A DNA stretch of 64,000 nucleotides from an uncultured archaeon (GTDB taxonomy: Archaea; Asgardarchaeota; Thorarchaeia; Thorarchaeales; Thorarchaeaceae), in NCBI GenBank assembly GCA_964473825.1, contig CAYYQL010000008.1, positions 35,374-99,373 on the forward strand, written 5' to 3'. Positions 14,521 to 60,959 of the stretch are shown piece after piece (position 1 is the stretch's first letter; every line of letters begins with the position of its first letter). A program made the translations under genes and the position numbers. A model generated the notes under the pieces. It did not search any database. It saw only the letters and a list, made by a program, of their open reading frames with translations, and was not told the DNA's origin.

Positions 14521-15516
14521 ATGCTTAGAATAGTGAACGCATATTTTGCTCTAGTCTTGATTGCAGTGGTTCTTTTCTTCATTGTGTGGGGGCTCGGATG
14601 GCTACTCGAGAAGATATCCCAACGCCTTCTTAGTACAGTGAGCAAGATAGGTTCCAGAGCATGGTATCTCCTAGTAGGTCCGGGAGTGGCGCTGCACGAG
14701 TCTTCGCATTGGCTGGGATGCATTCTCACCGGAACTCAAGTTGTCGAGTTCAAGCCCATCAACGTTGAGGTCACTGATGAAGGAATCGTTCTTGGTTATG
14801 TCAAGTATAGGCGGCCCGCAAGTGCTATCAAGAGCACAATCATCAACCTGGCCCCTGTAGTAGTTTCACTTGTACTGCTGGTCTTCTTTGCCCTGGGTGT
14901 CACATACTTGGTACCCGGGACTCCAGGTATAGGAGGTCAGGCATTAGTGTTGCTTGGCGAGTTGATTGAGATGAAGTCTAATCCTATCCTTCTCAATGAT
15001 CCAAGCTATCCAATTACTCAAATTGTAGATTTTGTATATCTGTTCCTTCAGACATTTGCGGGGTTTACTGTCCTCAGCCCCGTTTTCTGGATTGTGGCCT
15101 TCTTGGCAATGACGATAATGTTCTCTAATGCTCCTAGCGATGTTGATATTCGTAATGCAATTCCCGGGCTCAGAGCAATCATTGTGTTCAATATCATTTG
15201 GTTGATAATCGCCTACTTCGTTCCTCAGGCAGGAATACTGCTCTATGGCCTCTTCGAGTTCTTGGCTGTGATGTGGGCTTTGGCGCTGGCCTTTGCAGCA
15301 CTGGGATATGGATTCTTCATTCTAGTCTTTGCTCTATCTCGCTTGAAGACACCCCTTCAACTCATTCCTCTTGCTCTATGTCTCGCTTCAGCATTTGTCA
15401 TCTTGTATTTGGGATTCGGAACTCCGGCATTTTCCACCATTGGGGCCGTTGCCGTGCTGGTGGCGAGTACGATCGCCATGCTTGGAGTTAGGTCTTTTCG
15501 CGTGGGAGATTCATGA
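14521..15516 (+). CDS. membrane metalloprotease-like protein (M50-like)
   Basis: PGVALHESSH (HExxH), LGYV, NLAP, APSDVD; many TM helices. Confidence 0.7.
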   Translation: MLRIVNAYFALVLIAVVLFFIVWGLGWLLEKISQRLLSTVSKIGSRAWYLLVGPGVALHESSHWLGCILTGTQVVEFKPINVEVTDEGIVLGYVKYRRPASAIKSTIINLAPVVVSLVLLVFFALGVTYLVPGTPGIGGQALVLLGELIEMKSNPILLNDPSYPITQIVDFVYLFLQTFAGFTVLSPVFWIVAFLAMTIMFSNAPSDVDIRNAIPGLRAIIVFNIIWLIIAYFVPQAGILLYGLFEFLAVMWALALAFAALGYGFFILVFALSRLKTPLQLIPLALCLASAFVILYLGFGTPAFSTIGAVAVLVASTIAMLGVRSFRVGDS

Positions 15517-15593
15517 TCTTTCCCGTAGAAACTGCATATAGTAATACACACCCTTATGTTCGGTGAAAGGTGGATTGTATTCGGTTTCCGAAT

Positions 15594-15941
15594 ATGGCTA
15601 AGATTGACTTGGTAAAACGGCCATCACTGATCACTCCTAAACATCTTCTGCGTTACATCTTTTTTACAGAAATGCAGGTGGAACAAGCAGCGAAGATACT
15701 CAATGTGATTGTGAAGTCCGATGGCGTTGTTCCTGATTCAGAGTGGGAACGGTTCGTACTATCGAGCAGAGGTCTATATGTCAAAGTCATGCGAAAAATG
15801 CGGGACGTTGGGCTCGTTGAGAAACGTCTTGGAGAGTATCGTCTGGTAACAGATGTGTCATCGGCACTGGAAAAGATGGCTCATTATTGGTCGGAGATAG
15901 TTCAGTCCTTTAGAAACGGTGACAGGTCTATCGAGTTCTAG
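15594..15941 (+). CDS. hypothetical winged-helix-like protein
   Basis: YVKVMRKMRDVGLVEKRLGEYRL wing pattern; ATG at 15594. Confidence 0.6.
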   Translation: MAKIDLVKRPSLITPKHLLRYIFFTEMQVEQAAKILNVIVKSDGVVPDSEWERFVLSSRGLYVKVMRKMRDVGLVEKRLGEYRLVTDVSSALEKMAHYWSEIVQSFRNGDRSIEF

Positions 15942-56703: not shown

Positions 56704-57096
56704 TCACTCGCGGGGTGTTGCCAGATGTTTCTTGACAATCTTAAGCAGCTCGCTGCCTTGGAAGGGCTTGACTATGTATTCATCGGCGCCTAGCTCCATT
56801 CCTTGCTCCCTATCCTCCATCAGCCCTCGTGCAGTAAACATGAGAATTGGAGTCTTTTCAAACATAGTCTGAGATCGAAGCCTCCGACAGACCTCAAACC
56901 CATCGAGTTCTGGGAGCATTATATCAAGTAGGATGAGATCGGGTCGGCTGGATTCAGCTATTTCTAGTGCTTCAGTACCGTCGTAAGCAGCGATAACACT
57001 GAATCCATGACGTTCAAAAAAAGTCTTTGCCAGCTTGACAGTTATCTTCTCGTCATCAACTATTAGGATTGTCTTTCCTTTGGTTTCATCCTTCAT
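56704..57096 (-). CDS. stand-alone response regulator receiver
   Basis: ILIVDDE, LILLDIMLPELDG, FTA, GADEYIVKPF. Confidence 0.93.
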   Translation of the reverse strand: MKDETKGKTILIVDDEKITVKLAKTFFERHGFSVIAAYDGTEALEIAESSRPDLILLDIMLPELDGFEVCRRLRSQTMFEKTPILMFTARGLMEDREQGMELGADEYIVKPFQGSELLKIVKKHLATPRE

Positions 57097-57225
57097 GGTT
57101 GCGTTCCTCTTCGGCCCGAGTCATACTTTCTTTTCGTCCCGGTGGCCTTATTGATACCAAACGGTGGATGTCCATGCCTTAAGAATAAAGCTATCAGTCA
57201 TGTCATTGCCTAGTTGGCCAATGAA

Positions 57226-58809
57226 TCATAGTGACTCAAGCGTATCGAGGAACTCATTGAAGTATGGACATAGCCCGCCCTTCCAGTACAGGTTCCCGAA
57301 ACACTCTTTTTCCAGAGCCGTCCGTTCAATTCTGCACTCGTAGTTCTTTTCCGGATCAAAGAAGATGCATGAGTCGCTATCAATCGAACTATCATCAAAC
57401 ACATTCCTTCTCACTTCTATCATCGGAGATGAATCACCGGCCTGATCCCATCTTCTCCGGTCAGGAAGACCCTTCCGAACCTTCTCAACGAGTTCTGAAG
57501 GAGGTGTTGTGTCTGTACTCAGAGCAGAGACCAGCTCGCTGACATCTGCGTGATACAGTGCTAGAGGATACAGTATCTCCTCAGCGACCTTTCTTGCCAT
57601 GGAATATGCATGTATTGCCTGATTCATGTTGCATTGTAGATGGTATGTGTCGCCTAGCTGGAACCGCACAGCCATATGTATTGCGAGTAGACCTGCCCTA
57701 TCGGCAATATCTATGACCTCCTTATAGAGACCAATCGCCTTGCTGAAATCTCCCTTTCGAAGTGCCACATCGCCCAGATTTGTCTTTGCAACGGCCATTC
57801 CTCGCATATACTCAGCTTCTTGGCTTATTTCCAAAGCTCGTTGGTTGTAGCTCTCCATTTGTTCGAGCTGCCCAAGTGCCTTGTCAACCTCTCCAACGTT
57901 GATCAGTGTCTTAGCTAGGCCGATTTGATTGTTCAGTTCCTGTTGAACCAGGAGAAGCTCTTCAAACTGGTCTCTTGCATCCTGCAATTGGCCAAGATTC
58001 AGATAGATGATGCCTCTCAGGTTTCTTGCATTGGCAACTCCCTGCAACACTCCCATCCGCTCATATTTACCGATGCATGACCTGAGATAGCTGAGGGACT
58101 TTTCGTATTCATGACTGTATGTCAAGACATTCGCTCTGTAGTATGTTATGTCCGTTAACGCCAGAACGTGGTCGAGAAGTTTCGCTGTTTCCTCTGCCGA
58201 GTTCAGTCTAAGTATCGCCTCGTCTCGCTTCTTCGCCAGACCAGCGAGATGAGCCAGTATCAGTCTTGTTTCAAGAAGAGCAGCCTGAACCTTGGAACGA
58301 AGCCCCTCATCGGCTGTGGTGGATTCAGTGACACGTTCAATCCCATCCTCTGCAATGGTCCTGGCTTGGTCTGCATAGCCGAGGTTCATCAACACCTCCG
58401 ACAGCTTGCCGACAAGCTCAGCAAACACCACGTACCTCTTAGACTGCCATGCGTGGTTGACATAGTTTCGAAGGTTGTTAAGCCATCGGGGGTCAAGACT
58501 CTGAGTGCAGAATGAAGCAGCTGCATAGCCTCGACACGCAAGGTTTTGGCAGTTGCTGGAAAGAACCTCATTAAGATCATATCTTCCTCGCAAGTAAGCT
58601 GCCTTGCCGCACATAGCCAGCATATCAGATGACGCTTTTTCCCACTCTTGATTGACAACGAAATCAATTAGTACGTCAGTGAAGAGTCTGAATCTGTCTT
58701 TTCCGCTACTGGCCTCTGCTTCGATTGACTCACGCAAATACTGAGTTTCATCATTCGTGAGCCCGGTGCTGTACATGATGAATTCGGGGATTACTAGGTT
58801 TATTGTCAC
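57226..58809 (-). CDS. tetratricopeptide-repeat protein with C-terminal Cys4 domain
   Basis: Repeats such as ANARNLRGIIYLNLGQLQDA, AKTLINVGEV, AVAKTNLGDVALRKGDFSKA; tail C-x10-C-x10-C-x10-C. Confidence 0.85.
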   Translation of the reverse strand: MTINLVIPEFIMYSTGLTNDETQYLRESIEAEASSGKDRFRLFTDVLIDFVVNQEWEKASSDMLAMCGKAAYLRGRYDLNEVLSSNCQNLACRGYAAASFCTQSLDPRWLNNLRNYVNHAWQSKRYVVFAELVGKLSEVLMNLGYADQARTIAEDGIERVTESTTADEGLRSKVQAALLETRLILAHLAGLAKKRDEAILRLNSAEETAKLLDHVLALTDITYYRANVLTYSHEYEKSLSYLRSCIGKYERMGVLQGVANARNLRGIIYLNLGQLQDARDQFEELLLVQQELNNQIGLAKTLINVGEVDKALGQLEQMESYNQRALEISQEAEYMRGMAVAKTNLGDVALRKGDFSKAIGLYKEVIDIADRAGLLAIHMAVRFQLGDTYHLQCNMNQAIHAYSMARKVAEEILYPLALYHADVSELVSALSTDTTPPSELVEKVRKGLPDRRRWDQAGDSSPMIEVRRNVFDDSSIDSDSCIFFDPEKNYECRIERTALEKECFGNLYWKGGLCPYFNEFLDTLESL

Positions 58810-58968
58810 TCTTAGTCATTCATCCATCTCGGCTAATCTGAATCCTCGCGTAGTATCCGTACTAGTCCTTTCATGATGGCTGAAGCTACGTGGCCAAAAA
58901 AAGGATTCTAGGATATCTATTCGCATTTCCTGATTTCCTTTCCAAGTCATCGCATGGTGTTGGCCGTG

Positions 58969-59412
58969 TTATTTCAGAGGTGCTACTTTGCGAAGGATAT
59001 CTACCAGGTCGAATGTAGTGAACGGTTTCTGCAGTATCCCCCGTGCGCCTGCTGCAAATGCACTCTCCCCCAGACCCCGTCCGGGTTCTGATAGTGATAT
59101 GACAGTGATAGACGGATTGATGTCCAAGATCGATTCTATGAGACGAAGACCATCCTCCTCATTGATCTCTAGGTCCAGAATCACGGTGGCGGGCTCAACG
59201 TCTCTGCACTTGGCCAGCAACTCATGGTTCGATGAAGCCTCTCCTACTACCTGAAACCCTTCGTCTTCTATTGCAATCTTAAGAAGGGACCTAAGAAATG
59301 GTATCTCCCCCGCTATGATAACAGTCTTAGCTCTATCTTGGCCGAGGATTGTAGATCCCTCCCTCGAACTCGAGGATTCTATGCAAGATTTAGTCGCTAG
59401 CGGCGCTTTCAA
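58969..59412 (-). CDS. atypical stand-alone receiver
   Basis: VIIAGE replaces the acidic pair; VILDL, LS, GARGILQKPF retained; start uncertain. Confidence 0.85.
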   Translation of the reverse strand: MKAPLATKSCIESSSSREGSTILGQDRAKTVIIAGEIPFLRSLLKIAIEDEGFQVVGEASSNHELLAKCRDVEPATVILDLEINEEDGLRLIESILDINPSITVISLSEPGRGLGESAFAAGARGILQKPFTTFDLVDILRKVAPLK

Positions 59413-59752
59413 CCAAGTCCAACATGTGTCTGATTGTGACCGGTTTCAGCCCAAAACTCACAGCCCCGCCTTTGAGCGCTTGTTCCCTGACATTCGCGTC
59501 TGCGCTGATGAAGACTATCCGTGCCTCAGGATCTATGCCTAAAATCTCGGACATAGCTTCGAGACCATCCTTGTTCGGCATCCGATGGTCTAAGATGATC
59601 ACATCAGGTCTTGGCTCGAGATTCTCATAGGTCCTGATTGCTTCCTCGCCGTCAAAAGCATCAGCTACAACATGGTGTCCCTTGATTGCAAACACGTCCT
59701 TGTACAATCTGTGAAGAATCGCTTCATCGTCGATTATGAATATGGACACCAT
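59390..59752 (-). CDS. stand-alone CheY-like receiver
   Basis: IFIIDDE, IILDHRMPNKDG, FISA, KPV. Confidence 0.92.
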   Translation of the reverse strand: MVSIFIIDDEAILHRLYKDVFAIKGHHVVADAFDGEEAIRTYENLEPRPDVIILDHRMPNKDGLEAMSEILGIDPEARIVFISADANVREQALKGGAVSFGLKPVTIRHMLDLVESAASD

Positions 59753-59890
59753 TTCTCCCTGTACGTCCCTTGCTGCTTTCGCACTTGTAGTCCCCTGACA
59801 CGAGGCGGTCAGTTGTCCTGTTCACGACATGCTCTTTTATCTTTCTGTCGCTTGAGTTCAATCTAAGTGGACGTACAGTCTACAGAGAGA

Positions 59891-59917
59891 AATACGTTAT
59901 AAATGAATACGTGATAA
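59891..59917. repeat. 12-bp imperfect direct repeat
   Basis: AATACGTTATAA (59891-59902) and AATACGTGATAA (59906-59917). Confidence 0.6.
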
Positions 59918-60004
59918 CCCCTCCTGTTTCTTCTATTCACCCTTTCTACACGATCCCTCATCTCTCATATACCAAGTGAAAACAAAATGACACTCACTTG
60001 TTGA

Positions 60005-60645
60005 CGATTTTTCGAAAGGTTTTCCTATCGCCTCGATATATACAACCATCTTTTGTCTAAACGTAAATCAAATTATAATACCGTAATGCACGCAGCTGTC
60101 AAAGGAAGTTGGCGGAAGTTTGAGGAAGCTTTGGGACAGGTCGACCAGCTTTACGATTTGCTAGTCATGATCACCATACGGCTTTTTTCTACTATGGTGA
60201 ACCTCATAAGGCAAATCACTCCAATCTTCTTGTATTCGATATATGGATACAGCTAGTGGGTCTTTCATGGTAGTAACCCCTGTTCCATACTCAGTAGGTG
60301 TGTATTGGGTAGCTTTCACGAGGATAATCCCCCCTATTTACCTGAGAAAATAGTGGGCAGTAGCTATATCACAATTACTGAGTATGTGTGGAGAGTGTCC
60401 TTGTTCATGCGTTGATCTCTCTTCCATGATTCTGCTACGTTGCCATGTCTTAGGATAGCGTTGCATTGATTAGAAGTGACATGTAGAATGACAAATGAAG
60501 TGTGAAAGAAGACTCCGTGAATTGGTACAAAAATACATTTTTAGCGGAAAGTATCGGGAGAAATCTATCAAAGCAACGTTTGAAATAAGTAAACTATTGT
60601 GAACGATTTTTGAAGACTTAGCAATAACAACCTTTCGAAAAATCG
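60005..60645. repeat. perfect 17-bp inverted repeat enclosing multiple hairpins
   Basis: CGATTTTTCGAAAGGTT (60005-60021) and AACCTTTCGAAAAATCG (60629-60645); internal 11-bp inverted repeat at 60286-60296/60376-60386. Confidence 0.8.
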
Positions 60646-60833
60646 AGAAGGTGTGAGAGGAAAGGAGGTGTGGTCATGTGGGTAGAGAGAGGTGTTGTAA
60701 GAGAATCTGGGAGGAATCAAAGAGGAGGAAGTCATCAATCGGGCACAATGACAGCGGTTGAGGAGTGGCCTATCCATGTGTGGAGTGTTGCTACACGGAT
60801 ATCTACAGCGCTACAAAGCCTCTGGAGAATATT

Positions 60834-60959
60834 ATGAAATCTGGTCGATTCCGGCAACCAAAGGGCGACGTCCGAGTTGATCACTGTCACTTTTGCGGTG
60901 CCAACCTGAATGAAGACATTTCCGTCTGCGTGTCGTGCAAGACGCCGGTCGTCTGGTGA
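60834..60959 (+). CDS. small zinc-ribbon protein (41 aa)
   Basis: GGAG upstream of ATG 60834; HCHFCGANL...VCVSCKTPV. Confidence 0.6.
   Translation: MKSGRFRQPKGDVRVDHCHFCGANLNEDISVCVSCKTPVVW

Follow-up and report, generated by a model that had tools for sequence, protein, structure and literature searches.

The island and its conserved core

The 64-kb window analyzed here (the whole stretch of Thorarchaeales DNA, 64,000 nucleotides) harbors an island of 1081 nt at positions 59753–60833. To its left lies the gene of a 120-amino-acid (aa) stand-alone receiver, which starts at 59752 on the minus strand and heads a receiver-receiver-TPR operon; to its right, on the plus strand, follow a small zinc-ribbon open reading frame (ORF) and a transporter gene of the MFS family. 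A preliminary description had treated the island as a gene-free stretch of ∼1.1 kb with nested inverted repeats and had proposed a large structured RNA as its main reading. The island was found once in its own genome (a 3.27-Mb assembly in 103 contigs). The present analysis centers on a segment of ∼105–109 nt in the island, the core (60282–60390, plus strand), which is a candidate small RNA, and on the conserved DNA boxes around it.

When the whole island was searched against relatives, genomes of the same genus aligned at its left edge and at 60276–60388 (one alignment reaching 60710), and other genera aligned only at ∼60277–60388, i.e., the 11-bp inverted repeat together with the sequence enclosed by it. 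A first covariance model was built from six copies of the core and a second (R2) from 48 copies; the scores of the core in the window are 121 and 79.8 bits. With the six-copy model, 47 of the 86 genomes in the Thorarchaeota family proved to carry the core, nearly always once; they represent 14 of 16 genera and include 17 of the 23 high-quality genomes. With the 48-copy model, it was found in 18 of 26 sampled family genomes and, at full length (70 bits), in the sole genome of the sister family; ∼120 Asgard genomes of other families yielded no core apart from one weak match (E 0.02). An exact pattern scan of one genome per prokaryotic species retrieved 28 records titled Thorarchaeota, Promethearchaeota, or archaeon, one Hermodarchaeota-titled record, whose genome proved identical to that of a family member, and a chance match in Clostridium. 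Scanning metagenomes with the pattern added ∼8 further true copies, all of the Thorarchaeota lineage. Judging from these scans, the core is confined to one order of Asgard archaea, Thorarchaeota. Some apparent absences are contig ends beside the operon; one relative, G003, keeps the operon but truly lacks the core and every box associated with it.

The true pattern matches all span 98–99 nt. About 25 metagenome matches from gut bacteria span 97 nt and were set aside as chance, since the three tested (L065, L114, and L124) fail the covariance model. This 97-nt exact match recurs in contigs of gut Clostridia (the same three and ∼22 other loci) and represents one widespread bacterial sequence.

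The 49 distinct copies of the core could be aligned without indels, except for a single 1-nt deletion, and 14 positions are invariant. The possibility of a small protein-coding ORF was rejected: no frame is open in all relatives on either strand, stops of all three kinds occur in most sequences, and no three-base period was found in the conservation of the core. A conserved ORF upstream of the core was likewise not found, a 29-codon ORF that ends at the upstream palindrome (see below) not being conserved. The core is thus a conserved, single-copy, fixed-length, non-coding unit. Separately, four family genomes carry a second, diverged copy (L069 in G064, L070 in G045, L103 in G012, and L088 in G068); these copies have the same flanks, and in at least one of them, L069, all flanking boxes are present; either mixed bins or a local duplication would fit.

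The core matches no known RNA family. Nowhere in the window did an Rfam 15 family reach its gathering threshold, and when E-values up to 10 were allowed for the island, only two chance matches to snoRNAs appeared, at 16 bits against thresholds of 50–60. A tRNA search found none. Full-text literature searches brought up nothing on Thorarchaeota non-coding RNAs of this kind.

Helices of the core and the strand test

The 11-bp inverted repeat had been reported at 60286–60296 and 60376–60386; it is present there and extends to 17 nt at 88%. It is significant only by its conservation, because a pair of 11-mers of this kind is expected ∼0.1 times by chance. In an RNA its two plus-strand segments, CAUACUCA(GUA) at 60286–60296 and (UAC)UGAGUAUG at 60376–60386, would pair as helix P1. 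Just inside, UGUGU at 60299–60303, itself within an invariant GUGUA, would pair with 60369–60373 as helix P2. The six inner pairs of P1 are 94–100% paired in the 49 sequences, and in the sister family both positions of one P1 pair differ, with G·U in place of U-A. When the named structure (P1, P2, a tentative P3, and the upstream palindrome) was compared with versions in which the partners had been slid, 84.5% pairing was obtained against 27–47%.

The ∼65-nt interior holds the strongest sequence conservation, in the blocks GUGUA, UUU, CGAGGAUAAYC, UAUUU, AUAGA, and UAU. Its top-conserved part, CGAGGAUAAUC...UAUUU at 60319–60339 (plus strand), includes an invariant CG and an invariant A, and the 11-mer CGAGGATAATC from it is common to 16 of 29 loci of other genera; the P3 hairpin in this block is unsupported. 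No interior helix that holds across the alignment was found by eye, by pair statistics, by RNAalifold, or by events on the tree. The inward stems TAGCT/AGCTA and CTATTT/AAATAG of the preliminary description do appear in the minimum-energy fold of the window sequence, but their pairs are not kept in 48 relatives. Similarly, TAGCT/AGCTA, ACCCU/AGGGU, GGG/CCC, and a pseudoknot with a GGAUAA/UUAUUU hairpin were rejected as helices of the family, as they occur in some genera only and in shifting registers.

The strand on which the pairing acts was assessed by counting single-sided changes at paired positions as events on the tree and sorting them into G·U, A·C, and other breaks. With equivalent half-sites in DNA, G·U and A·C events would be equally frequent, and a plus-strand RNA helix tolerates the wobble class only. 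The six inner pairs of P1 showed 17 G·U events, 3 A·C events, and 1 other break, and the binomial estimate for 17 of 20 is ∼0.001. P2 showed 30 G·U, 8 A·C, and 13 other breaks and is a weaker helix than P1. The counts were 20, 22, and 3 for the upstream palindrome and 10, 11, and 14 for P3. The wobble bias on the plus strand in P1 and P2 therefore points to RNA. The folding energy adds little, the plus strand being the more stable in 13 of 20 relatives. With slightly more confidence than doubt, the island may be read as a composite of control elements with a single small RNA gene in its midst.

Several observations weigh against this reading of the core. Comparative analysis of covariation had been proposed as a check; the core is conserved and its pairing specific, but the covariation is non-significant, as column shuffles reached the observed value in 336 of 500 trials. 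The shuffles match it because the stems are conserved in sequence. RNAalifold run on 48 sequences keeps P1 only, and at the terminal pairs of P1 the A·C events outnumber the G·U events (14:4). The fold z-scores of the core are modest and nearly equal on both strands (mean in 20 relatives ∼-2.25 on the plus and ∼-2.0 on the minus strand). The strands of P1 and the arms of the upstream palindrome share one half-site, RTAYTCA, and P1 may therefore also be read at the level of DNA. No consistent T-run follows the core, and no promoter could be placed with confidence. The joint loss in G003, finally, fits boxes that belong to the unit of the core and not to the neighboring genes. The half-site also accounts for the complementarity of the left palindrome arm to the 3′ strand of P1; a long-range pairing between the two was considered and rejected, as no convincing co-variation was seen.

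The main rival, which we consider rather unlikely, holds that all ∼650 bp of the unit, the core among them, make up a cis-regulatory region of protein-binding sites, with RTAYTCA half-sites at the palindrome and at either end of the core, and that no functional RNA is made. In its favor are three kinds of palindrome conserved without compensatory change, the half-site common to P1 and the palindrome arms, an interior devoid of a consensus helix, the non-significant covariation, and z-scores alike on both strands. However, the wobble bias of P1 and P2 (17:3 and 30:8) is absent from the palindrome, and equivalent half-sites would not give such a bias. In addition, an array of binding sites would not usually extend over ∼105 contiguous bases that include 14 invariant positions and lack any indel across the order.

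Conserved DNA boxes and neighboring genes

The preliminary description had reported a perfect 17-bp inverted repeat (60005–60021/60629–60645) with CTCAC outside each arm and a degenerate third copy, and both are borne out by the sequence. The repeat extends to 29 nt at 83% complementarity, including CTCAC/GTGAG, and the chance expectation of a perfect pair of inverted 17-mers within 1.1 kb is ∼3e-5 by our own arithmetic. The left arm is part of the left box, GACGATTTTTCGAAAGGTT (60003–60021; no strand is assigned to the DNA boxes), which lies 254–330 nt upstream of the core in most family loci, with CACTCAC (59991–59997) and ATCCCTCA (59953–59960) ahead of it. The right box, AACCTTTCGAAAAATCG with GTGAG (60629–60657), holds the right arm and is the left-box composite in inverted form; in most loci of the family it is found 303–348 nt downstream of where the core starts. 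The third copy, ACGATTTTTGAAG, is at 60603–60615. Across the family the box has the consensus TCGATTTTTCGA(AAGG), usually with CACTCA or CCCTCA 7 nt ahead, and this inverted composite explains the pyrimidine- and purine-rich flanks that had been described as mirror images. One genus has the upstream box in the other orientation, beside a degenerate second copy. The flanks of the two box copies are as identical within a genome as between genomes, and the 12-mer is ∼90% identical everywhere. Hence, the two copies do not co-evolve; they are complementary by construction, as the box is nearly palindromic.

The exact 11-mer of the box occurs in eight copies in the own genome of the window, seven of them intergenic. 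Six of these seven precede the next gene start by 78–250 nt in one orientation, and several are ∼10–30 nt after a TATA-like sequence. Since the box recurs at other promoters in the genome, it is probably an operator, and the outer boxes are probably promoter-proximal operators of the two flanking, outward-facing units. Symmetric operator sites for divergent units, which had been listed as an alternative, are the best fit for the outer repeat. On the minus strand, GTATATATC lies ∼20 nt ahead of the left box, and AT-rich sequence is found just inward of both boxes in the family. Besides those in the island, five intergenic exact copies of CGATTTTTCGA are located in the same genome (G000) at C4:53927, C4:146022, C34:3344, C53:1527, and C62:154; most of them precede a gene start by 78–250 nt in one orientation, which suggests a small regulon.

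Two RNA-based explanations of the outer repeat were considered and rejected. Two convergent C-rich small RNAs ending at the T5 runs of the boxes are not in agreement with the right copy, which lacks a conserved promoter where one would be expected, nor with the orientation of the box at other genomic sites, which fits promoters better than terminators. A bulge-helix-bulge processing stem does not fit either, as the outer repeat contains internal loops and not 3-nt bulges 4 bp apart.

A single RNA of ∼640 nt running from box to box, closed by a 12–17-nt pairing of the boxes and with the palindromes as hairpins, appears improbable. The order and spacing of boxes, palindromes, and core are kept across the family, G003 has lost all of them jointly, the two boxes are complementary wherever a genome contains both, and the 671-nt span folds with a z-score of -2.5 on the plus strand. 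Against this, the boxes show no compensatory changes and their flanks no more identity within genomes than between them; their complementarity comes free with their near-palindromic form; the palindromes have mismatches other than wobbles; the sequence between the blocks is unconserved even within a genus; the upstream box is reversed in one genus; and the box recurs singly at other promoters. The folding energy of the 671-nt span, suggested earlier as a check, is lower than that of shuffles on both strands (-2.5 on the plus and -3.4 on the minus strand), but the difference is modest and does not separate the strands. The stems described earlier at 60126–60217 fall in a stretch that is unalignable even within the genus and holds no conserved 8-mers, and the single nested, concentric structure comes apart into repeats that belong to different elements. 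The undescribed non-coding RNA proposed earlier is thus best retained as a reading of the core, with no Rfam match, order-wide conservation, and a wobble bias, and a large multi-helix RNA over 60005–60645 is not favored by the evidence.

Between the left box and the core, a palindrome of the type GTATTC-N7-GAATAC holds a fixed position 35 nt before P1 in all 49 loci. In the window it reads GTATTC-N7-GGATAC (60232–60250) and corresponds to the TGTATTC/GGATACA stem (60231–60251) of the preliminary description; the repeat is present and fixed in place in the family, but it has no RNA-type substitution bias. The 20:22 ratio of G·U to A·C events makes it probable that the palindrome acts as DNA, and it is probably an operator or promoter element of the putative RNA gene. 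Genome-wide, 15 sites match it with at most one mismatch, against one for the control. As only three of the 15 are intergenic, a regulon is not established. Elsewhere in the window, a similar palindrome, GTATTCGGTTTCCGAATAT at 15577–15595, lies between a TATA-like box (∼15535–15550) and the ATG (15594) of a 115-aa ORF (15594–15938). This ORF has no Pfam match and could be a candidate autoregulated regulator.

Downstream of the core, a further family palindrome, TGGTACA-N4-TGTACCA followed by GGMA, is found at +235 to +265 in most loci, where the mismatched positions form U·U, A·A, and A·G and not wobbles; the window has a degenerate copy of it followed by GGAA (60523–60549). Upstream, a family-wide TATA-like box, TTATAAATGAATACGTGATA, was located at 59896–59915 in family alignments, and TATAAATGA within it (59898–59906) is common to 13 of 29 loci of other genera. 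An AT-rich stretch, ATTATAATA, followed by three GGAAG (60070–60128, plus strand) lies ∼180 nt upstream of the core and recurs in the family, with RGGMAG, at about -175. This segment is a candidate rightward promoter or start region.

The ∼1.1 kb is gene-free only in part: ORFs start at 60676 and 60765. The first, of 53 codons (60676–60837, plus strand), is preceded by a GGAGGTG ribosome-binding site (60664–60670) and matches no family. The second is the zinc-ribbon ORF of 64 aa (60765–60959, plus strand), which corresponds to the C-terminal two-thirds of a 106-aa protein encoded in a genome of the same genus (L010, genome G001). That protein has two zinc ribbons, and the window ORF lacks the first. 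The right end of the island is coding, or was until recently. Among the loci compared, the zinc-ribbon ORF is confined to the genus of the window. It has a weak, sub-threshold Pfam match (E 0.024) to TackOD1, a domain that provides the output of two-component systems in archaea, and adjoins three stand-alone receivers.

In 26 of 32 loci the core and the receiver-receiver-TPR operon diverge from each other, and the orientation of the core is identical in all 26. In the window this set of receiver, TPR-protein, and two-receiver genes (56704–59752) has no kinase; it is syntenic with the core in the same 26 of 32 loci. An MFS gene lies downstream on the strand of the core in 12 loci. It would therefore be conceivable that the core is the leader part of a zinc-ribbon/MFS transcript, i.e., a cis-regulatory RNA such as a riboswitch or an attenuator, since the core too is on the plus strand. 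We consider this improbable: the start of the MFS gene is 830–2300 nt away at variable distance, conserved promoter-like boxes stand in between, no conserved terminator or sequestering hairpin follows the core, and the zinc-ribbon ORF exists in one genus only.

Two further explanations concern the island as a whole. It is very improbable that the unit between the inverted boxes is what remains of a mobile element now fixed in place, or an invertible DNA switch. Inward-facing composite repeats of ∼30 bp do flank the unit, and it is absent as a whole from G003; on the other side, it occurs once in its own genome, in the same context in 26 of 32 loci with constant orientation, and the second copies in four genomes carry the same flanks. 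The genes near the island encode receivers, a TPR protein, and an MFS transporter, and no recombinase or transposase gene was found among them. A decayed miniature inverted-repeat transposable element, as once considered, is likewise not in agreement with a single-copy island and core in one context across the family. A replication origin, also listed earlier, is scarcely credible despite the large AT-rich intergenic region with inverted repeats, since the island has no origin recognition box of the TTCCAGTGGAAA type, the window shows no skew switch there, the two orc1/cdc6 genes are on other contigs with none near the island, and a canonical box, TTCCAGTGGAAAT, stands directly upstream of orc1/cdc6 on another contig. 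A canonical archaeal origin box, GGTTCCAGTGGAAATG, was located on contig C30 of this genome at ∼15190–15215, directly upstream of an orc1/cdc6 gene, where it likely marks a replication origin.

Proposed function and comparison with known systems

A small RNA gene set inside conserved DNA control boxes is the reading of the island that we favor on balance. The gene would correspond to the core (60282–60390) and be read rightward, the ends of its RNA being held by P1 (CAUACUCA/UGAGUAUG), a helix of 6–8 bp stacked on the 5-bp P2. The ∼65 nt between the helices, conserved in sequence and exact length and without conserved Watson–Crick helices, would probably serve as the binding surface for a protein partner or another RNA, with P1 and P2 protecting the ends. 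The palindrome GTATTC-N7-GAATAC, 35 nt upstream, would probably be the operator or promoter element of this gene. The two inverted TCGATTTTTCGA boxes would probably be operators at the start sites of outward-facing promoters, which would drive the receiver-receiver-TPR operon to the left and the zinc-ribbon and MFS genes to the right. Transcription, the ends of the RNA, and every functional role assigned to the core are predictions from sequence. A more specific proposal, which seems quite unlikely, is a Thorarchaeales-specific ribonucleoprotein with the core as its RNA subunit. The protein partner would impose the invariant length and the conserved unpaired interior, and core and boxes would together form a self-contained, tightly regulated unit of ∼650 bp, possibly giving a long precursor that is cut to a 105-nt RNA.

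Asgard archaea are the closest known relatives of eukaryotes, and to our knowledge almost nothing is known about their non-coding RNAs. The core adds an uncatalogued RNA candidate with one copy and one exact length across an order, and with the covariance model and exact coordinates, RNA data sets of sediments or enrichments can be searched for it directly. Three conserved palindromic DNA motifs are also defined here, and they could offer an entry point to the control of promoters in these uncultured organisms. Should the RNA be part of a protein-bound particle, its partner would be worth finding; if the core is not transcribed, the region is an unusually constrained archaeal control region.

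Among known small RNAs, Y RNA and other end-paired RNAs of ∼100 nt resemble the core in their size, in ends that form a conserved stem, and in a conserved unpaired interior able to hold a protein. Assignment as a Y RNA was nevertheless rejected: no TROVE (Ro60) gene was found in the own genome, which is 95.7% complete, while control genomes matched, and there is no Rfam match to Y RNA. The stem of the core is presumably unrelated in sequence to the Ro-binding helix. Box C/D small RNAs are similar to the core in being small archaeal RNAs whose terminal stem is short and whose conserved interior is mostly unpaired. The alignments of 48–49 sequences, however, contain no C box (RUGAUGA) near the 5′ end, CUGA occurs at the 3′ end in only about half of the sequences, the ∼105 nt of the core are nearly twice the usual size, and no C/D family of Rfam scored above chance; hence, this assignment was rejected as well.

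Archaeal repressors such as MDR1, LrpA, and TrmB-type regulators bind operators located downstream of the TATA box and overlapping the start site. Both the TCGA-T4/5-TCGA boxes and the palindrome GTATTC-N7-GAATAC resemble such operators, being short palindromes located ∼10–30 nt after TATA-like sequences and before gene starts. Unlike those operators, the boxes of the island are known from their sequence alone, and both are lost with the core in one relative.

The core is also comparable to orphan structured non-coding RNA motifs (e.g., the candidates in PMC5737381), with which it shares conservation as a block within a long gap between genes, a single copy in each genome, a narrow lineage, and no coding signal. 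Those motifs are defined by covarying helices, whereas the two closing helices of the core are supported by the wobble bias only. The core differs further in an interior that is conserved in both sequence and exact length, and in its host, an Asgard archaeon.

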